From Escherichia coli (lineage in GTDB: Bacteria; Pseudomonadota; Gammaproteobacteria; Enterobacterales; Enterobacteriaceae): 64,000 bases of DNA. This document shows, piece by piece, positions 6,893 to 55,260 of the stretch. The position numbers and the translations under genes were made by a program. Location of the stretch: the NCBI RefSeq assembly GCF_017348835.2, contig NZ_CP071375.1. One strand, 5' to 3'. Numbering within the stretch: position 1 is the stretch's first letter; every line of letters starts with the position of its first letter. The notes under the pieces are model-generated. The model saw only the letters and a program-made list of their open reading frames with translations. It was not told the origin of the DNA and searched no databases.

Positions 6893-8389
6893 TTAATCCT
6901 CTCGGGCAAAAAGTGCCTCTATAAAGTCGTCCGCCTTAAACGGACGCAAATCCTCAATACGTTCGCCGACACCAATGTAGCGGATAGGGATACCAAACTG
7001 GTCAGCCACCGAGAAAATTACCCCGCCTTTCGCCGTGCCGTCCAGTTTCGTTAGCGTGATGCCGGTTAAGCCAACAGCTTCGTGGAACAGTTTGGCCTGG
7101 CTTACCGCGTTCTGCCCGGTGCTGGCATCAATAGTCAGCATAACTTCATGCGGCGCTTCAACGTCGAGTTTCTTCATCACGCGGACGATTTTCTTCAACT
7201 CTTCCATCAGATGCGATTTGTTCTGCAGACGTCCGGCGGTATCGGCAATCAGGACGTCGATATTACGCGCTTTAGCTGCCTGAATGGCGTCGAAGATAAC
7301 AGAGGCGGAATCCGCACCGGTATGCTGGGCAATCACCGGAATATTGTTGCGCTGACCCCAGACCTGAAGCTGTTCAACCGCTGCTGCACGGAAAGTATCG
7401 CCCGCCGCCAGCATCACCGATTTACCCTGCTGCTCAAACTGACGCGCCAGCTTACCAATCGTCGTGGTTTTACCCACACCGTTGACGCCCACCATCAGGA
7501 TCACGAACGGCGTTTTACCTTCAACATTCAGCGGCTCATCGACTTTCGCCAGAATCTCGCCCATCTCTTCTTTCAGCAGGCCATAGAGCGCCTCGGCATC
7601 ACGAAGCTGCTTGCGGGATGCGCCTTCCGTCAGATTGGTGATAATTTTACGTGTGGTTTCCACGCCCACATCGGCGATCAACAGCTGTTCTTCCAGCTCT
7701 TCAAAAAGATCATCGTCGATTTTTTTACCGCGGAACAGGCTGATAAATCCGGAACCGAGATTTTCTTTGGTTTTTAACAGGCTGCGTTTCAGGCGCGCGA
7801 AAAAACCTTCTTTGGTTGGTTTTTCCTGCTCCTGAGCGATTTCTTCCACCGGCTGCTCTTCTTCTGCCGGAGGAACCACTATCACCGCTTCTTCTGCCGC
7901 TTCGGCAGCCAGCGCCTGTGCTTCCAGCTCTTCGTCGGTGATTTCTTCTTTAGCCGCTTCTTCTTCCGCCACTTCGACAATCTCTACGGTTTCCGCTTCA
8001 GCCTGCCACTCTTCTGGCGAAACCTCTTCGGCGTTGACGTCTTCCGGCAACGGCAGCTCTTCACGTTCGATAGCCACTGGCTCCGGCGTTTCTTCTACGA
8101 CCGGTTCCGGCTGTGCAACGACTTCCGCTTCAGGCTGCGCTTTTTCACTTTCAGCAACCTGTTCAGTGACTTCCACAACGTCGGCAGCAAAAGTTTCCGC
8201 CTCGGCTTCAGTATGCGCCTGCGGCTGCTCTTCAACGGCGTGTTCAGAAGCCTTCACAGGCTCTTGCGCCTGAACGATTTCTTCTACAACCGGTTGTTCA
8301 TTCTGAACTTCTGTCTCTTTTTCCGGGGTCTGCTCTTTTTGACCAAAGCCCAGCCAGGAAAAAAAGCCACGTTTTTTTTCTTTCGCCAT
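6893..8389 (-). CDS. ftsY: Signal recognition particle receptor FtsY
   Basis: 498-aa ORF with acidic N-terminal domain and C-terminal SRP GTPase domain (GVNGVGKTT); operon ftsYEX. Confidence 0.95.
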   Translation of the reverse strand: MAKEKKRGFFSWLGFGQKEQTPEKETEVQNEQPVVEEIVQAQEPVKASEHAVEEQPQAHTEAEAETFAADVVEVTEQVAESEKAQPEAEVVAQPEPVVEETPEPVAIEREELPLPEDVNAEEVSPEEWQAEAETVEIVEVAEEEAAKEEITDEELEAQALAAEAAEEAVIVVPPAEEEQPVEEIAQEQEKPTKEGFFARLKRSLLKTKENLGSGFISLFRGKKIDDDLFEELEEQLLIADVGVETTRKIITNLTEGASRKQLRDAEALYGLLKEEMGEILAKVDEPLNVEGKTPFVILMVGVNGVGKTTTIGKLARQFEQQGKSVMLAAGDTFRAAAVEQLQVWGQRNNIPVIAQHTGADSASVIFDAIQAAKARNIDVLIADTAGRLQNKSHLMEELKKIVRVMKKLDVEAPHEVMLTIDASTGQNAVSQAKLFHEAVGLTGITLTKLDGTAKGGVIFSVADQFGIPIRYIGVGERIEDLRPFKADDFIEALFARED

Positions 8390-37860: not shown

Positions 37861-37957
37861 CCGGATGCGGCGTGAACGCCTTATCCGGCCTACAAAAACA
37901 TGCAAATTCAATAGATTGCAGAGATTATGTAGGCCTGATAAGCGTAGCGCATCAGGC
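37861..37957. repeat. Pair of REP elements (BIME-like) downstream of pitA
   Basis: GCCGGATGCGGCGTGAACGCCTTATCCGGCCTAC and inverted GTAGGCCTGATAAGCGTAGCGCATCAGGC. Confidence 0.7.
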
Positions 37958-46648: not shown

Positions 46649-46678
46649 TACATTCAGGTTATAAAACCAGCATGTCCT

Positions 46679-47771
46679 GTGTAAGTTCACAGAGATATTG
46701 CAATTGCCTCCGGATAAGTAAGGGGAGATTGCACTATGCAAATGCAGCATCTGATGGTTGGCTATCCTAAGTACTACCAAACGGCCGATTATGCGTTGAG
46801 GCTTTCAGTGATGGCTGATATAGCAACAATGAGAATGAAGGCTCTGCACTTCTGGGATAAACACGGTATTTCTGCAGCTTCTGAAGCCTTTGGCGTGTCC
46901 TGCCGCACGCTTTACTGGTGGCGTCAGTTACTGAACAAGGAAGGACCTGAGGGGCTAATCCCGCACAGTAAGGCACCTCTGGTGCGACGAAAAAAACACT
47001 GGCATCCCGATGTGCTGAAAGAGATTCGACGCCTCAGGACAGAGCTGCCGAACCTCGGTAAAGAGCAGATTTTTGTTCGCCTGAAGCCCTGGTGCGAACA
47101 GCGCTATCTGGCCTGTCCGAGTGTTTCCACCATCGGCAGAATGATCGCTGCCGCACATGATAAAATGCGGATGATACCTGTGCGTCTGGGATCGCGGGGG
47201 AAGGCACTGCTTGTCAAAAAGCGGTCTGCCAAACCCCGCAGGCCAAAGCACTACCGCCCGGTAAAGACAGGTGAGCTCATTGGGATGGACGCCATTGAGC
47301 TCAGAATGGGCGAACTGCGTCGCTATGTCATCACCATGATCGACGAATGCAGCAATTACGCGCTGGCGCTGGCTGTGCCGTCACTCAACAGTGATATCGT
47401 CAATCACTTCTTCAGCCGCGCAGCCCGGTTGTTCCCGGTCGGTATCAGCCAGATAATCACAGATAACGGAAAAGAGTTCCTGGGAAACTTCGACAAAACG
47501 CTGCAGGAAGCCGCTATCAAACACCTCTGGACCTATCCCTACACGCCAAAAATGAACGCTATCTGTGAACGTTTTAACCGGACGTTAAGAGAGCAGTTTA
47601 TTGAATTTAATGAGATTTTACTCTTTGAAGATCTGGCGCTATTTAACCAGAAGCTGGCGGAATATCTGGTGCTGTATAACAGCAAAAGACCCCACAAGGC
47701 GCTCGCACTAATGACGCCCGTGGAATATATTTTAAAAGAGAATAAAAATTGCAATATGTGGTGGACCCATA
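46679..47771 (+). mobile_element. IS481-family insertion sequence (~1.09 kb) with imperfect terminal inverted repeats and 8-bp target-site duplication CATGTCCT
   Basis: CATGTCCT at 46671-46678 and 47772-47779; termini GTGTAAGTTCACAGAGATATTGCAATT and AATTGCAATATGTGGTGGACCCATA are inverted; single rve/DDE transposase fills the element; boundaries uncertain by ~10 bp. Confidence 0.7.
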
Positions 47772-47818
47772 CATGTCCTTGCAATAGTTTCAGTATGGTA
47801 TTAGCATTGATGCGTTAG
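46736..47818 (+). CDS. IS481-family DDE (rve) transposase, 360 aa; last ~15 codons are read from the target duplication and flanking DNA
   Basis: 360-aa ORF with N-terminal HTH region and integrase core (ITDNGKEF, YTPKMNAICERFNRTL); stop codon lies 47 bp beyond the inferred right end. Confidence 0.8.
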   Translation: MQMQHLMVGYPKYYQTADYALRLSVMADIATMRMKALHFWDKHGISAASEAFGVSCRTLYWWRQLLNKEGPEGLIPHSKAPLVRRKKHWHPDVLKEIRRLRTELPNLGKEQIFVRLKPWCEQRYLACPSVSTIGRMIAAAHDKMRMIPVRLGSRGKALLVKKRSAKPRRPKHYRPVKTGELIGMDAIELRMGELRRYVITMIDECSNYALALAVPSLNSDIVNHFFSRAARLFPVGISQIITDNGKEFLGNFDKTLQEAAIKHLWTYPYTPKMNAICERFNRTLREQFIEFNEILLFEDLALFNQKLAEYLVLYNSKRPHKALALMTPVEYILKENKNCNMWWTHTCPCNSFSMVLALMR

Positions 47819-47897
47819 ATGATGGCATTCTCACTCCAGCCAGAGCCACCAACTCTGGGCTGCAAAGTAAAAAACCGACGCAAAGTCGGTTTTTTTA
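47815..47897 (+). ncRNA. agrA: agrA-like small antisense RNA of the dinQ locus (approximate ends)
   Basis: TTGCAA-N17-TAGCAT promoter-like pair, CTCACTCCAGCCAGAGCC segment matching the dinQ leader, terminator hairpin ACCGACGCAAAGTCGGT plus T7. Confidence 0.5.
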
Positions 47898-48044
47898 CAT
47901 CCGGATTCGGACAAGGCTTAATATGACGATGACCCAGTGAAAGTATATAAATCGTCACTGCGATATATACCGAAGTGCCCCCTCCGCCAGCTGAAGAAAT
48001 CGCTAATTCTTGCAATGTTAGCCACTGGCTAATAGTATTGAGCT

Positions 48045-48127
48045 GTTAGATAAGAGCTCTCTCACTCCAGCCAGAGCCACCAACTCAGGGCTGGAAAGTA
48101 AAAAACCGACGCAAAGTCGGTTTTTTT
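48045..48127 (+). ncRNA. agrB: agrB-like small antisense RNA, second copy (approximate ends)
   Basis: Near-identical second copy with TTGCAA-N17-TAGTAT promoter-like pair and the same terminator. Confidence 0.5.
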
Positions 48128-48159
48128 ACGTCCTGATTCAGACCTCCTTTCAAATGAAT

Positions 48160-48240: not shown

Positions 48241-48241
48241 T

Positions 48242-48292
48242 TGGTTTGTAACGCTGGCTGCGCTGGCGCTACGTCTCTCTTTCACTTTGTAA
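48242..48292 (+). pseudogene. Possible 3'-terminal remnant of arsB (16 codons, WFVTLAALALRLSFTL*)
   Basis: Short hydrophobic frame ending 12 bp before arsC ATG, the position where arsB normally ends; no upstream arsB body. Confidence 0.3.
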
Positions 48293-48304
48293 TGAGATAC
48301 TGAT

Positions 48305-48730
48305 ATGAGCAACATTACCATTTATCACAACCCAGCCTGCGGCACATCGCGTAATACGCTGGAGATGATCCGCAACAGCGGTACAGAACCGACCATTATC
48401 CATTATCTGGAAACACCACCAACGCGCGATGAACTGGTAAAACTCATTGCCGATATGGGGATTACCGTACGCGCGCTGCTGCGTAAAAACGTCGAGCCGT
48501 ATGAGGAACTGGGCCTTGCGGAAGATAAATTTACTGACGAGCGGTTAATCGACTTTATGCTTCAGCACCCGATTCTGATTAACCGTCCGATTGTGGTGAC
48601 GCCGCTGGGAACTCGCCTATGCCGCCCCTCGGAAGTGGTGCTGGAAATTCTGCCAGATGCGCAAAAAGGCGCGTTCTCCAAGGAAGATGGCGAGAAAGTG
48701 GTTGATGAAGCGGGTAAGCGGTTGAAATAA
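48305..48730 (+). CDS. arsC: Arsenate reductase ArsC (glutaredoxin-dependent), 141 aa
   Basis: 141-aa ORF MSNITIYHNPACGTSRNTLEMIRNSG with catalytic Cys12. Confidence 0.95.
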   Translation: MSNITIYHNPACGTSRNTLEMIRNSGTEPTIIHYLETPPTRDELVKLIADMGITVRALLRKNVEPYEELGLAEDKFTDERLIDFMLQHPILINRPIVVTPLGTRLCRPSEVVLEILPDAQKGAFSKEDGEKVVDEAGKRLK

Positions 48731-48779
48731 AGCGGCTATATCCCCCCCACAGGTTGTTAGAAAAGTGCGCTTTATTTAT

Positions 48780-48879
48780 GTCGGATGCGACGCTGGCGCG
48801 TCTTATCCGACCTACAAGGTTATGAAAATTCGATGAATTGTATGTTATTTGTAGGCCTGACAGGCGTAGCGCATCAGGC
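48780..48879. repeat. Pair of REP elements downstream of arsC
   Basis: GTCGGATGCGACGCTGGCGCGTCTTATCCGACCTAC and GTAGGCCTGACAGGCGTAGCGCATCAGGC. Confidence 0.7.
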
Positions 48880-49356
48880 GATTTTGCTATTTACACATTA
48901 CTCCCTGCGTGAGATTCCAATTATCGCGTCCAGCATGGTGTATCAGTGATCTGCTTAGTGATCAGCGATACAGTGCAGCAGTTTAAAGACGTACTGGATT
49001 ATGATTTATCAGTGCTTTACACAACAAATTATTCAATAATTATAAGATACCTTAACCCATTTTATTATTACACATCTAAAACATCACAAAAATATCATTT
49101 CACACACTATCGGAGAACATCATAACTTTTTAAAATGAGCGCTTTTTGATAGTTGTTAACGTTTTCTTTTACGATACTATCAATGCCCTTTTTTATACAC
49201 AAATATTACCGGGTGGAGATAAAAGGGAAGTCAAAGGTAATTATATCAGGAAGATATGACGCATGATATTTATTGTGCGTAGAAGAAAATCCATTCCTGC
49301 TCTAATTATCCAATTTAAAAATCTTAGCATAAAACAGATAATGAATAAGGAATGTT

Positions 49357-50472
49357 ATGTCAATTGACTTTACCCCAGGTGTGATAAATACATATCACGG
49401 CGATATTTATAACCGCACAACAGATACCGACAATGTTAAAACACCAGACACACCGATGTGGCCTTGTGATAATCGGGAAGAACAACAACCCATTAATTCC
49501 ACATTCTCTGGAGAAGGATACAACCCTGAACAATATGATTTAGCGCGGCAACACCTCCCACAAATTTATGCGTGCCGCACGAACACCAAATATACAGATG
49601 CAGACTACTCAAAAGTTGTGGCTCAACTTGTAAGTCTTATTACTAACATTGAATCGATAAGTTCGACACCACTTACGCGGCAGGCACAGGAAATACTTAA
49701 TCAAATTAATAACATTAGATACGAAAAGAACAAAAGTGCTGAATGTCGAATCATTGTTGTCGCTAATCCTAAACCCGACAAGGCAATCATAACTAAAATT
49801 AGCGTAGAAGAGGGAATACCAGTAAGATTCAGTGTCCAAACCATGTTTTCAGATACTAATTTTATTGCTGAACAACGAGCTGACTTACCGACTAATATAA
49901 AAGATATTCAAATCCTGTATCAAAAAATGACGAAGTTATATATTGAACACAGTGAAAATAAAAACAGGATGAAAGTCTTTGCCGGAACCAACTTTATTGA
50001 TTTCAATATGACAGGACAGAACCTGTCCGGGTTCGTTCTAACTTTGTCAAGGTTTTATTTCGAAGATCTACTTAATATAAATTTCACTGACGCAAATTTA
50101 GGTGACACTATTTTTTCACATAAAGAACACCCTACCCCCAAATTATATAAAGACGAACAATATCTTGACAAACAAATCGAAGGTTTATTTTCAACATTAT
50201 TAACCATTAATGACAACTTTTTACGAGCAAAAGCGGAAATTGCTTCGACAATAATTAAATTCTTAGAGGCCAGGATAACCAATCTTTCATACAATGACAT
50301 ATTAAAATATCAGCAAGAATTCCAAAAACAATGTTATAAGCAAGTTAAAGCCTTTACGACACTCTCCCGATACAATAAAATTCAAACATGGGCAGAAATG
50401 TCTGAATATCAATTCGAAGTATTTCAATACGAGACGCTTAACCCAAAAAAATGTCACGTACGCCTTATTTAA
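49357..50472 (+). CDS. yhiS: YhiS-like uncharacterised protein, 371 aa, intact; AT-rich gene
   Basis: 371-aa ORF at the arsC-slp position; Asn/Ile/Lys-rich, a few pentapeptide-repeat-like segments ([11 protein letters not shown]). Confidence 0.6.
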
Positions 50473-50826
50473 AGAGGCCACTTCCTAATGAAAAAGATAT
50501 ATATTATGGGGTGGAAATAGAAATACCATCTGGCAAAAGAATTCGCTTATCAAATCATTATCAGAATATAATACCATAATATTGATTATTAGCACTTTAT
50601 AATTATTGAATAAAAATATATTTTATGTAATTTTAAAACAAAGGATTATATTATGGGGCGATGGATACTCATGTCACGCCCCAAAATCAATGGAATTGAA
50701 CTAAACAGAAGGGATATAAACATCAGACAGGTTTACGTTACTATCAGGCATATCGCCTCAGAATCAGATGAAAACTATAAAGAAATATCTATTATGGTTT
50801 TAATATTTGTTGATAAGGATAGTAAC

Positions 50827-51393
50827 ATGAACATGACAAAAGGTGCACTCATCCTCAGCCTTTCATTTTTGCTTGCCGCATGTAGTTCAATTCCGCAAAA
50901 TATCAAAGGCAATAACCAACCTGATATTCAAAAAAGTTTTGTTGCTGTTCATAACCAGCCGGGGTTATATGTTGGTCAACAAGCGCGCTTTGGCGGGAAG
51001 GTTATCAACGTTATCAATGGCAAAACGGATACGTTGTTAGAAATCGCTGTATTACCGTTGGATAGCTATGCGAAACCTGATATTGAAGCCAACTATCAGG
51101 GCCGACTGCTCGCCAGACAAAGCGGCTTCCTTGATCCAGTGAACTATCGTAATCACTTTGTTACCATCCTCGGTACCATTCAGGGTGAACAACCCGGCTT
51201 TATCAATAAAGTCCCGTATAACTTCCTGGAAGTGAATATGCAGGGCATCCAGGTGTGGCATTTGAGAGAAGTGGTTAATACCACCTATAACCTGTGGGAT
51301 TACGGCTATGGTGCATTCTGGCCGGAACCGGGCTGGGGTGCGCCTTACTACACCAATGCGGTGAGTCAGGTAACACCTGAGCTGGTCAAATAA
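50827..51393 (+). CDS. slp: Starvation-inducible outer membrane lipoprotein Slp, 188 aa
   Basis: ORF track 50653..51393 trimmed to MNMTKGALILSLSFLLAACSS (lipobox). Confidence 0.9.
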   Translation: MNMTKGALILSLSFLLAACSSIPQNIKGNNQPDIQKSFVAVHNQPGLYVGQQARFGGKVINVINGKTDTLLEIAVLPLDSYAKPDIEANYQGRLLARQSGFLDPVNYRNHFVTILGTIQGEQPGFINKVPYNFLEVNMQGIQVWHLREVVNTTYNLWDYGYGAFWPEPGWGAPYYTNAVSQVTPELVK

Positions 51394-51548: not shown

Positions 51549-52079
51549 ATGTTTCTTATAATTACCAGGGATACGATGTTCTTCACCGCGATGAAAAACA
51601 TTCTGAGTAAAGGTAATGTCGTTCATATACAGAACGAAGAAGAGATCGACGTAATGTTGCATCAGAATGCCTTCGTCATTATTGATACATTAATGAATAA
51701 TGTATTTCATTCTAATTTTCTCACTCAAATTGAACGATTAAAACCTGTCCATGTCATTATTTTCTCCCCCTTTAATATTAAACGCTGCCTGGGGAAAGTG
51801 CCGGTGACCTTTGTTCCGCGGACTATCACTATCATTGATTTTGTCGCACTCATCAATGGCAGTTACTGCTCTGTGCCTGAAGCGAATGTGTCACTTTCGC
51901 GCAAGCAACATCAGGTTCTGAGCTGCATTGCGAATCAAATGACAACGGAAGATATTCTGGAGAAACTGAAAATATCGCTAAAAACGTTCTACTGCCATAA
52001 ACACAATATCATGATGATCCTCAATCTTAAGCGGATCAATGAGCTGGTACGCCATCAGCATATTGATTATCTGGTATGA
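51549..52079 (+). CDS. dctR: LuxR-family regulator DctR (YhiF), 176 aa
   Basis: 176-aa ORF with C-terminal LuxR-type HTH; follows slp. Confidence 0.9.
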   Translation: MFLIITRDTMFFTAMKNILSKGNVVHIQNEEEIDVMLHQNAFVIIDTLMNNVFHSNFLTQIERLKPVHVIIFSPFNIKRCLGKVPVTFVPRTITIIDFVALINGSYCSVPEANVSLSRKQHQVLSCIANQMTTEDILEKLKISLKTFYCHKHNIMMILNLKRINELVRHQHIDYLV

Positions 52080-52139: not shown

Positions 52140-53168
52140 TTATGCAGCAACGCCTTCCGGTATCAGCGAAGCAATTTGCTTACGCCATTGCGCTTGCTCC
52201 TGTTCGCCTTCTGTACGTTGACCATAAAGTTGCGCTATCTGCGTACCATCATGGGCAAACAATTCCAGACTGGTTACGTAGCCATCGCTGGTCGGTTTAC
52301 GGGTAACCCAGGCTTCAGCAATGCTCTCTTCTAATAGATGAAGAGTAAACGTCGGGTTGAAAATATTCAGCCAACCTTTCATTGGCACCACTTTTTCTAC
52401 CACACCGGTGAAAATCTGTACGCAGCCACGGTTGCCAACAAACACCATGATTTCATTACCATCCTGCTGTGCAGATTCAAGAATTTGCGCCAACGCACTG
52501 TTGGATACTTTGCAGGCCAAATCGTCCGCCACCAGATTGAACGCCTGTTGGCGCGTCAGGTTGTGGCGCTTGAGCAACGTAAAAAACTGATGAACGTCGG
52601 TCATCGCCCGCCACTCTTGCTCGACCACACTGGCATCGACTCGCGTTTGAACAACTGGCGCATCAACGGCTTTTAACTCAAGCGGCGTATTCTCATCGGT
52701 GATAAACCGTGCCAGAAGCTCACTCCATGCCGCCATATCGGTATTGTCGGTGGCATAAACTTTTAGTAATGCATCGCCCTGATGATCAAAGAACTGAATA
52801 CTTTGGCGTTCGCCACGAGCCGTGTTTTCTTTGATGTGGAAAACACTGGCCCATTGATTGAGAAACAGACGTAAATCCAGCGCGCGTGGATTGAGGATCA
52901 ATCCGGCATGTCCGTTCAAATGCTGGTTTGTGAACGCACCAACTTGCTCATGGACTGCATATTCATTACGGCAAATACATTTGGTCTCGCCAACACTTTC
53001 GAGCGCCGCCAGAATTTCACGGATATCGCCGCGCATCCGCCACGCATCGTGCGTGACGCGTGCAAATGCCAGTTCTGCTTCTCTAATATTCATTAACCCT
53101 GCGATGTCACGCGCGTACTTTCCGGGATTTTGTTCTTTTAACTCAAGCCAGCGTGTGTAGTGGTTCAT
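52140..53168 (-). CDS. chuS: Haem-degrading protein ChuS (HemS/ShuS family), 342 aa
   Basis: 342-aa ORF MNHYTRWLELKEQNPGKYARDIAGLMNIREAELAF; adjacent to chuA. Confidence 0.9.
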   Translation of the reverse strand: MNHYTRWLELKEQNPGKYARDIAGLMNIREAELAFARVTHDAWRMRGDIREILAALESVGETKCICRNEYAVHEQVGAFTNQHLNGHAGLILNPRALDLRLFLNQWASVFHIKENTARGERQSIQFFDHQGDALLKVYATDNTDMAAWSELLARFITDENTPLELKAVDAPVVQTRVDASVVEQEWRAMTDVHQFFTLLKRHNLTRQQAFNLVADDLACKVSNSALAQILESAQQDGNEIMVFVGNRGCVQIFTGVVEKVVPMKGWLNIFNPTFTLHLLEESIAEAWVTRKPTSDGYVTSLELFAHDGTQIAQLYGQRTEGEQEQAQWRKQIASLIPEGVAA

Positions 53169-53216: not shown

Positions 53217-55199
53217 TTACCATTGATAACTCACGAAAATTTTTCCGTTACGACCATCCTGTGGGATGCCTTGCGGCGACCAGTACTCTTTGTCGAAAGC
53301 GTTACCCAACACCAAAGTAGTGGTCATACCTTTGAGCGCCTGTTGTCCTTGATAACTGACGTAGAAATCATTCACGCCATAGCCTGGTTGTTTGCTGTAA
53401 CTGCTGCTGATATGTGTTGAGCGATCGGCAAACGTACCAACCCACCCAACAGAGAAGCCACTGTGAGCGATCGGAATATTCAGGGTGCTGGTAACGGTAT
53501 CCGGGTTAATGCTGGAGATGTATTCGCCGGTATCGGTGTCTTTGCCGCGGGTACGGTTATAGGCCACATCAAGGCTAAACAGATCAGTGGTATATTTCGT
53601 CATCACATCCCAGCCCCAGATTTTGGCGTTCGGGACGTTATACGACATAGTCGTCGCCGCCGCGAAATCGACGGTCGTGGAGATGTAATCCTTCGCTTTG
53701 GTATCAAAGTAGCTGGCTTTAAATTCCAGAGCATCATTGGACAACATCAGGTCATCAAAACGCAGCCCAAAACCGTACTCCTGAGTTTCGTTAGTTTCCG
53801 GACGTAAGTTCGGGTTTGACACCCAATAGTTGGTATAGAAGCGACCAATCGAGAAGTGCTTAGAATCGTTATACATTTCGCCCATCGTCGGGGCGCGGAA
53901 TGCCTGGGCATATGAGCCAAATAACATCAGCCAGTTAGTCGGATTGATAGTCATCCCCGCACGAGATGACCATTTGTCGGCATCAACATCTTTGTAACCG
54001 TCACTGCTACCGCGATAACTGTCATAGCGGGTTCCGCCAAGCAGGGTAATCGGCAGATCGCGTAAGGTGATCTCATCCTGTAGCCAGCCGGAGCTAAAAT
54101 CGATTTTTGCTTGCGGGAAGCCCGTCGTCGCGCCGCCCGGATGTTGTTCCTGACGATAATACTCACCGCCATATGTCAGTAAGTGAGAAGCGAAACTGTC
54201 GGCAAAGAGAGTGGAACGGTTCTCCAGCCTGGCTCCTTTTGTTATCTGTTCACGATACTCGCCGGAACTCCCCGTGTTTTGCGCATTAATACGGACTTCC
54301 GACCAATAAATTTTTGCATCTGCATTTAACCAGTCGTTGCCCTGCGGGGCGAGTTTATAAGAAAGCTGCGCATCGCGTTGAATTGTTGAACGATCAACCA
54401 TCGGGTTGCTGCTTTCAGAAGCCTCAACGGTCTGCGGATTTTTTGGTTCACGCGCGTCGTTGTTGTAGTAACGCACTAAACCGCTCAGAGACTGGGCTGA
54501 ATCAATTTGCCAGGTCCCTTTCGCCAGCATGTTATTAATGGACTCGTCATTCGGCGCGGTTTCACCATTGCTCTGGCGTAAATCACCCCGATCGCGACTG
54601 GACCAGGCCACAATACCATCCAGATTTTCAGTTCGCCCAAACGCGCTCGCGCCTAATCCCAGGCTATGGTCCCCCGTGCCGCCAGTACCAAAGACACGAA
54701 AACCACTGCTTTGTCCTTCCTGCAATAAATCTTTTGCATCGACCGTATCGTAGGAGATCACTCCACCCAGCGCGCCACTGCCATACAGTAATGCTGAAGG
54801 TCCGCGAACAATCTCAACACGCTTGATCAGCGCCGGATCGAGAAAAGTGCCATTCAGGTGTCCGGTATCCGTTCCCTGGCGAACACCATCGATAAGAACC
54901 AGCACGCCGCGATGATCATAGCCACGCATATTTACATCCTGACCGTTGGTTCGTCCGGTACCATCCAGAGTAATTCCAGGAACATGACGCAGCAGATCGG
55001 TGGCTGAAGTAGCCGTTTGATTTTCAGGAGCGGAAGTGTCGATGACGCTGACCATCATAGGCGCTTCGAAGGAACTACGGGCATTCCCCGTTGCCGTAAC
55101 GGTCATGGTTTCAGTAGCAAAAGCAAACGTTGGCAAGGTGGCAGAAACAGCCAAGGCCAATAAACTCAAACGCAACGAGGTAAATTGCGGACGTGACAT
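53217..55199 (-). CDS. chuA: TonB-dependent outer membrane haem receptor ChuA, 660 aa
   Basis: 660-aa ORF with signal peptide, TonB-box region ETMTVTA, FRAP and NPNL haem-receptor motifs, C-terminal aromatic residue. Confidence 0.95.
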   Translation of the reverse strand: MSRPQFTSLRLSLLALAVSATLPTFAFATETMTVTATGNARSSFEAPMMVSVIDTSAPENQTATSATDLLRHVPGITLDGTGRTNGQDVNMRGYDHRGVLVLIDGVRQGTDTGHLNGTFLDPALIKRVEIVRGPSALLYGSGALGGVISYDTVDAKDLLQEGQSSGFRVFGTGGTGDHSLGLGASAFGRTENLDGIVAWSSRDRGDLRQSNGETAPNDESINNMLAKGTWQIDSAQSLSGLVRYYNNDAREPKNPQTVEASESSNPMVDRSTIQRDAQLSYKLAPQGNDWLNADAKIYWSEVRINAQNTGSSGEYREQITKGARLENRSTLFADSFASHLLTYGGEYYRQEQHPGGATTGFPQAKIDFSSGWLQDEITLRDLPITLLGGTRYDSYRGSSDGYKDVDADKWSSRAGMTINPTNWLMLFGSYAQAFRAPTMGEMYNDSKHFSIGRFYTNYWVSNPNLRPETNETQEYGFGLRFDDLMLSNDALEFKASYFDTKAKDYISTTVDFAAATTMSYNVPNAKIWGWDVMTKYTTDLFSLDVAYNRTRGKDTDTGEYISSINPDTVTSTLNIPIAHSGFSVGWVGTFADRSTHISSSYSKQPGYGVNDFYVSYQGQQALKGMTTTLVLGNAFDKEYWSPQGIPQDGRNGKIFVSYQW

Positions 55200-55260
55200 A
55201 GCGATTCTCCATGAGGAAAATAAAAAATGCTGGCTGCCTGGGTTAATACCGGGGTGGCTG
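55200..55260 (-). promoter_or_regulatory. chuA 5' leader containing a FourU-type element next to the Shine-Dalgarno (candidate RNA thermometer)
   Basis: Minus strand reads CATTTTTTATTTTCCTCATGGAGAATCGC-ATG: U-run upstream of GGAGA SD; a temperature-sensing leader is remembered for shuA/chuA. Confidence 0.4.

Follow-up and report, generated by a model that had tools for sequence, protein, structure and literature searches.

Background

The closest described counterpart of the gene analysed here is yhiS of Escherichia coli K-12 (b3504; UniProt P37635), which has been treated as an uncharacterised, IS5-disrupted pseudogene under the names yhiS-1/yhiS-2 (PMC8170033, PMC11677980). The K-12 arsC/yhiS and insH11/slp intergenic regions are described as H-NS-bound promoter islands, K-12 yhiS itself carrying IS5 (PMC3661553), and yhiS is one of the sites for which high StpA affinity is reported, again with IS5 in the K-12 copy (bioRxiv 10.64898/2026.02.10.705075). 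When YdeO is over-expressed, yhiS is unresponsive despite a nearby YdeO site, unlike the adjoining slp-dctR (PMC4222967).

The sequence analysed here is a stretch of 64,000 nucleotides of E. coli (contig NZ_CP071375.1 of assembly GCF_017348835.2), referred to below as the window, in which yhiS occupies the same locus as in K-12 with the same synteny, arsC-yhiS-slp-dctR. The two copies share 94% nucleotide identity over gene nucleotides 1-746 and approximately 98% beyond the IS5 site, and each is a disrupted version of a gene of 407 codons: K-12 yhiS is broken by IS5 and keeps a tract of eight A residues (A8), whereas the window copy is free of IS5, has seven A residues (A7) and has lost the last 42 residues alone. 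An O157:H7-like YhiS (strain CV261, WP_001303709.1, cluster P0001) has the same length as the window protein (371 aa), is cut at the same codon and shares 98% protein identity with it; its lesion is independent, being C4A7 to C4A6 rather than C3A8 to C3A7, and it ends in CHARLI rather than CHVRLI.

Results and discussion

Identity and surroundings of yhiS

By synteny and sequence identity the gene is yhiS, a chromosomal orphan of E. coli/Shigella only. Flanked by arsC and slp, it lies at the left edge of the acid-fitness island, where the gene order is gor, dinQ, an IS481-family element, the agrA/agrB small RNA genes, arsC, yhiS, slp, dctR and chuS. The features concerned are:

48305..48730: arsC, neighbour of yhiS
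49357..50472, plus strand: yhiS ORF; codons 1-365 authentic, codons 366-371 (CHVRLI) out of frame
51549..52079: dctR, downstream of slp
52140..53168, minus strand: chuS; the strain carries the chu haem-uptake cluster

As stated in the original prediction, which was made from the sequence of the window alone, the ORF is uninterrupted, running from ATG to stop through 371 codons plus the stop; the sequence AAGGAA, 5 nt upstream of the ATG, is a plausible ribosome-binding site. The name yhiS, proposed there as well, agrees with the synteny, with the position next to slp-dctR and with the identity to the K-12 fragments, and the protein is 75-98% identical to the UniRef-named YhiS proteins. What the window copy lacks is the complete 407-codon frame of the intact gene, the frame being lost past codon 365 with A7 in place of A8. 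The gene is already catalogued, and the window allele is already public as a hypothetical protein.

The statement that the K-12 copy is split by IS5 is correct: in MG1655, two pseudogene pieces surround an IS5 transposase. The element lies after gene nucleotide 746, with its TTAG target duplicated on both sides, and the corresponding site of the window is empty:

50099..50102, plus strand: TTAG, target of the K-12 IS5 (insH11), unoccupied in the window

Several other features of the window were observed around this locus. An IS481-family element of approximately 1.09 kb (46671-47818; transposase ORF 46736..47818), with an 8-bp direct repeat CATGTCCT at 46671-46678 and 47772-47779, separates dinQ from the agrA/agrB antisense RNA genes, and the insertion is shared by PE164, the closest relative of the window. 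Two Rfam matches to the AgrB family (47815-47898 and 48046-48129; 108 and 100 bits), the first of which starts right where the IS481 transposase ORF ends, presumably represent agrA and agrB, which regulate the dinQ toxin as antisense RNAs. The genes arsR and arsB are missing (window 48241-48305): the sequence that lies just upstream of arsR in K-12 is joined to the last 50 nt of arsB, so that arsC stands alone, without regulator or pump, a layout that recurs, minus the IS element, in Ecol_AZ146. The left edge of the homology shared at the yhiS locus falls at about 49020-49050 of the window, a junction of variable gene content: upstream of it, O103, O111:H8, Sx181 and MS1718 are unrelated to the window, and the place of arsC is taken by a 'permease' gene in O103, Sx181 and MS1718 and by an IS1203 transposase in O111:H8. 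Elsewhere in the window, Rfam identifies the shuA/chuA 5' UTR RNA thermometer (55197-55228, minus strand; 60.1 bits against a gathering score of 58) and the ES036 (CssrF) small RNA (37896-37936, plus strand; 42 bits against a gathering score of 37.6).

A one-base deletion in a poly-A tract detaches a conserved C-terminal tail

The original prediction held that yhiS is intact here. Comparison with other alleles contradicts this: a 1-nt deletion in a poly-A tract removes a conserved tail of 42 residues from the protein. The two features involved are:

50445..50451, plus strand: A7 homopolymer, site of the 1-nt deletion; PE164 and K-12 have A8
50451..50579, plus strand: detached yhiS 3' end, a 42-codon ORF equal to residues 366-407 of the full-length protein

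Over 1224 nt, the window differs from PE164 at a single position (99.9% identity), which is the tract itself: positions 50442-50453 of the window read CCC-A7-TG and the PE164 counterpart reads CCC-A8-TG. Likewise, one homopolymer base is the sole difference between F2_81 and the window over 1224 nt. The yhiS gene of PE164 translates without interruption to 407 aa, ending in NIIP. The 407-aa and 371-aa forms align through residue 365, past which the former continue into the conserved 42-residue tail and the latter end in six unrelated residues. Other alleles keep the frame with different versions of the tract (C4A7, TA7 or the interrupted CGAAAAGA) or lose it with C4A6 (-1, O157-like) or A9 (+1).

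A search of 5.8 billion proteins found homologues in E. coli and Shigella alone, most of them 407 aa long, not 371; the 407-aa clusters are dominant (8964, 2855, 539, 394 and 190 member sequences) and the 371-aa clusters are small. On comparison of the alleles, the 407-codon form is the ancestral one, because its frame is retained in three deeply diverged allele families with only 75-80% protein identity, one of which (SM107, CGAAAAGAT) has no homopolymer at the frameshift site; because the longest stretches of the gene that all alleles share without a nucleotide change fall in the tail; and because dN/dS in the tail is 0.12-0.66, mostly below 1. The chance of 42 open codons in DNA of the yhiS region is approximately 0.08, a figure that by itself lends weak support.

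The last 60-80 nt of the 407-codon frame (window 50518-50579; gene nucleotides 1148-1205) are the most conserved DNA of yhiS, with 97-100% identity in the most complete comparison, where the alleles are approximately 85% identical elsewhere. Either protein constraint or a regulatory signal for slp that overlaps the frame could account for this conservation.

The locus is not annotated consistently by the pipelines. In PE164 the in-frame A8 copy (L002, 6001-7224), which has a clean 407-aa translation, is entered by PGAP as a "frameshifted" pseudogene ending at 7117, and the 371-aa copies of CV261 and A30 are taken as normal proteins; the PGAP reference in the PE164 lineage is evidently a truncated protein.

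Decay of yhiS across E. coli

A sensitive blastn search finds some part of yhiS in 5416 of 5426 complete E. coli genomes (99.8%); at least 80% of the gene is present in one piece in only 3997 of the 5426. The lengths of the gene were surveyed in 60 genomes, sampled at regular intervals through the ranked list of 4365 megablast hits, with the following result:

Frame-keeping length (1225 nt): 26 of 60 genomes
1 nt shorter: 21 of 60 genomes
Other lengths: 6 of 60 genomes
IS-split or partial: 7 of 60 genomes

Because 26 of these copies have a frame-keeping length and all six of the six frame-compatible copies that were checked are annotated as intact 407-aa coding sequences, approximately 35-45% of genomes appear to hold an intact yhiS. 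The lesions found in other copies are at least seven in number and independent of each other:

A8 to A7: the window and strain A30
C4A7 to C4A6: O157-like strains, independently giving a 371-aa product
A9: strain 21AR0133
Loss of C after a T6 run, nucleotide 761: eight strains (O103, O111:H8 and six others)
Extra A at nucleotide 966: strain ET490
IS5 insertion: K-12 derivatives
IS1 insertion: strain L16-131
Only nucleotides 1-379 left: approximately 1050 genomes, e.g. Ecol_AZ146 (L017, 3001-3380)

Several of the strains with the lesion at nucleotide 761 have taken second hits (a nonsense codon, a 2-nt deletion, a further 1-nt deletion). In the group that retains nucleotides 1-379, slp begins 190 nt further on, a deletion of approximately 1 kb having taken the rest of yhiS and part of the region upstream of slp. 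The catalogue fits a dispensable gene that has been lost many times, mostly through slippage in short homopolymers.

For the window, we propose that slipped-strand loss of one A turned the A8 tract of an ancestral 407-codon yhiS into A7 (50445-50451), shifting the frame past codon 365 and giving a 371-aa product without the conserved 42-residue tail. The gene being dispensable, the lesion would be an unremarkable mutation, either loss-of-function or hypomorphic, and it is one among many independent lesions that have inactivated yhiS in more than half of E. coli genomes. As a whole, the best explanation, which we consider likely and hold with good confidence, is that the window carries a frameshift-truncated allele of a dispensable and repeatedly broken orphan. 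The truncated 371-aa product has presumably lost its function; the truncated form could be tolerated or even favoured, as an O157:H7-like lineage has the same length via an independent lesion.

Composition, origin and probable silencing

The locus coincides with a region of atypical composition:

48950..50830, no strand assigned: AT-rich island (33% GC), comprising yhiS and the intergenic regions that part it from arsC and from slp

The GC content of yhiS is 35.1% (32% at third codon positions) and that of the island is 33.2%, against 50.1% for the whole window; along the sequence, the GC fraction is 0.30-0.40 across about 48800-51000 and 0.50-0.56 in the flanks. These values support the claim that the gene and its flanks are AT-rich, and the protein is rich in Asn, Ile and Lys as had been noted (Ile 9.2%, Thr 8.9%, Asn 7.8%, Lys 7.0%).

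That the gene was horizontally acquired, as the original prediction suggested, is consistent with this composition and with the restricted distribution of the protein, which is found in E. coli/Shigella only, both being features of xenogeneic DNA. The search of 1.84 billion representative proteins brought up no homologue in a donor, and yhiS is without mobility signatures of its own; the nearby IS481-family element, 1.6 kb upstream of yhiS, is lineage-specific. Peptide-pattern and degenerate DNA-pattern scans of the GTDB species representatives (100,044 species) were both empty, in a collection whose E. coli representative also lacks the segments sought. A recent import is contradicted by the genomes: because remnants are found at the same locus in nearly all of the complete genomes searched, the acquisition of yhiS, if it was acquired, would be as old as the species.

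In comparison with H-NS-silenced xenogeneic genes and promoter islands, yhiS is alike in its 33-35% GC within a genome of 50% GC, in being a lineage-restricted orphan and, on the published K-12 data, in its H-NS-bound flanking regions and high StpA affinity, and differs in having no integrase, tRNA or direct repeats to mark a mobile island and in keeping to a single locus throughout 99.8% of E. coli genomes. The gene would be transcriptionally silent, and is best described as an old AT-rich orphan, restricted to the species and probably silenced. A scan of 48700-50900 for promoters and terminators found none of the latter and 15 promoter-like sites, where 9.5 +/- 3.6 would be expected, a result made uninformative by the AT-rich DNA.

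The YhiS protein and its pentapeptide-like segment

Searched exhaustively with a HMMER profile, a set of 1.84 billion representative proteins yielded no YhiS homologue outside E. coli/Shigella. There is one full-length 50%-identity cluster, from E. coli; the other matches are E. coli fragments or long pentapeptide-repeat proteins, of which the latter reach E values down to 2e-7 and align only with residues 203-297 or thereabouts, mostly 203-256. Pfam scans of the matches found nothing common to them beyond pentapeptide repeats, and Pfam, NCBIfam, PADLOC and PHROGs hold no family for YhiS. A match to the DDE_Tnp_1_3 family (E = 0.014) stays below threshold, with 15.8 bits where 27 are required, and was taken as chance. 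The segment of YhiS concerned is:

49975..50124, plus strand: pentapeptide-repeat-like segment, residues 207-256, ten pentads

Inspected by eye, residues 207-256 form an unbroken series of ten pentads, each centred on F, L or M, which is preceded immediately by N or D in seven of them; this agrees with the tandem pentads of PF00805, which have a central L or F and small or polar residues at positions i-2 and i-1. PF00805 matches occur in 10 of 11 members of the YhiS family, all of them sub-threshold (best E = 0.091), with scores of 11-12 bits (12.0 for the window protein) against a gathering threshold of 20.2 bits. When PDB sequences were searched with a profile, just two pentapeptide-repeat proteins matched, both weakly, the match of the Rfr protein 2f3l (E = 0.006) covering residues 202-254. 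To speak of pentapeptide-repeat-like segments, as the first description of the gene did, is fair as a statement of resemblance, given the ten pentads and the weak profile matches, and does not amount to family membership. With the pentapeptide-repeat proteins (PF00805; the cyanobacterial Rfr proteins 2f3l/2g0y, Qnr/MfpA), residues 207-256 of YhiS share a five-residue periodicity; unlike them, YhiS has only about ten pentads in an otherwise unrelated protein of 407 aa, and it shows no sign of DNA mimicry or gyrase protection. A type III effector with pentapeptide repeats, of the EspX or PipB2 kind, was considered and set aside, no search having found similarity beyond the repeats.

AlphaFold models of the full-length protein and of residues 176-407 have mean pLDDT values of 32 and 47, too low for use. 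Over the pentad segment pLDDT is 30-37 and a beta-helix is not built; both runs drew the 42-residue tail as a beta-hairpin, at low confidence. Foldseek found nothing in the PDB that matches these low-confidence models at E <= 0.001. YhiS is without a transmembrane segment, and its N-terminus is not signal-like, the maximum hydropathy over 19 residues being 0.99. YhiS is most likely a soluble cytoplasmic protein whose N-terminus is variable and probably disordered, together with helical regions and a short segment of pentapeptide type, which would be enough for approximately 2.5 coils of beta-helix. We infer that YhiS binds another macromolecule or has a scaffold role, rather than being an enzyme.

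Allelic divergence and other readings of the locus

Intact alleles of yhiS differ from each other far more than does the DNA around the gene. The window or PE164 is 80-84% identical to SM107 across 49719-50517; identity is 95-100% on either side, both in the intergenic DNA upstream and in the stretch that runs from 50518 into slp, and all strains examined share one Slp protein sequence. About three haplotype families are combined in the alleles, which are mosaics of them, and the substitution rates are as follows:

Codons 151-300: dS 0.42-0.68, dN/dS 0.13-0.34
First 100 codons: dS 0.05-0.11, dN/dS 0.5-2.0, mostly near 1

Because of the low dN/dS in codons 151-300, the core of YhiS, including the pentapeptide segment, is under purifying selection like a real protein. 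The divergent alleles would be either very old or imported from unsampled relatives. So much divergence among intact alleles, under purifying selection, sits poorly with simple dispensability. An alternative that we consider unlikely is that YhiS is more than a decaying orphan, namely an E. coli-specific protein kept as an old, recombining, multi-allele polymorphism. A constrained and divergent core between near-identical flanks, in a gene that has nevertheless been knocked out repeatedly in more than half of genomes, is what a gene in conflict would be expected to show, for example a gene that phages, competitors or the host recognise, or that acts against them. On this reading selection would favour diversity of alleles at some times and loss at others, with the A-tract as the path most often taken to loss.

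A truncated allele that differs from PE164 and F2_81 over 1224 nt by nothing other than one homopolymer base invites the objection that A7 is an error of sequencing or assembly and that the true yhiS of this strain is the intact 407-codon form, for single-base homopolymer differences of this sort are the typical signature of long-read or pyrosequencing errors. However, at least four NCBI accessions record the exact 371-aa protein of the window, which is found on eight public contigs, including one of 5.02 Mb, and strain A30 has A7 as well, on a slightly different allele. Because of these recurrences the A7 allele is probably real, and a read error is quite improbable.

The distribution of tract lengths bears on a further possibility, slightly less probable again, in which the homopolymer is a contingency locus whose changes in length switch yhiS reversibly, as phase variation under fluctuating selection. 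The length of a coding homopolymer is indeed polymorphic among close relatives here (A7, A8 and A9; C4A6 and C4A7), as at phase-variable loci: three independent out-of-frame lengths (A7, A9 and C4A6) occur at one site, in-frame versions occur on near-identical backgrounds, the A7 protein on its eight contigs has an A8 sibling on 17, and other lesions of the gene also fall in homopolymers (T6C at nucleotide 761; an A-run at nucleotide 966). In E. coli with working mismatch repair, however, the mutation rate of tracts of 7-8 bases is too low for classic phase variation, the lesions of many lineages are irreversible (IS5, IS1, the deletion of approximately 1 kb, a nonsense codon, stacked secondary frameshifts), and the SM107 allele family has no tract at all. 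Because the tract is short and irreversible lesions are found in many lineages, decay is the better fit to the pattern.

The least probable reading, and a very doubtful one, is that A7 is a recoding site at which a programmed -1 ribosomal frameshift, or transcriptional slippage adding an A, yields the 407-aa form beside the 371-aa form: the heptamer A_AAA_AAA at 50445-50451 lies in zero-frame phase, as a slippery X_XXY_YYZ site does, a -1 shift gives back exactly the full-length sequence and the zero-frame stop is just 6 codons downstream of the tract, but there is no stimulatory structure (the 79 nt downstream fold at -11.9 kcal/mol, with a z-score of -0.25 against shuffles), A7 is short for efficient transcriptional slippage, and the two-frame layout is not conserved, the nearest relatives and all major allele families being in frame (A8, C4A7, TA7 or an interrupted tract), so that programmed frameshifting is unlikely here.

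Conclusions

The ORF of the window should be annotated as a frameshifted, truncated yhiS rather than as the intact version of a gene that is a pseudogene in K-12, and the ORF of 42 codons that lies downstream of it should not be called a separate gene. These results leave the current understanding of the adjacent acid-fitness island unaltered. For the study of gene loss, yhiS provides a clear case of an AT-rich orphan that is species-wide yet dispensable, and the divergence of its surviving intact alleles under purifying selection could repay population-genetic study.
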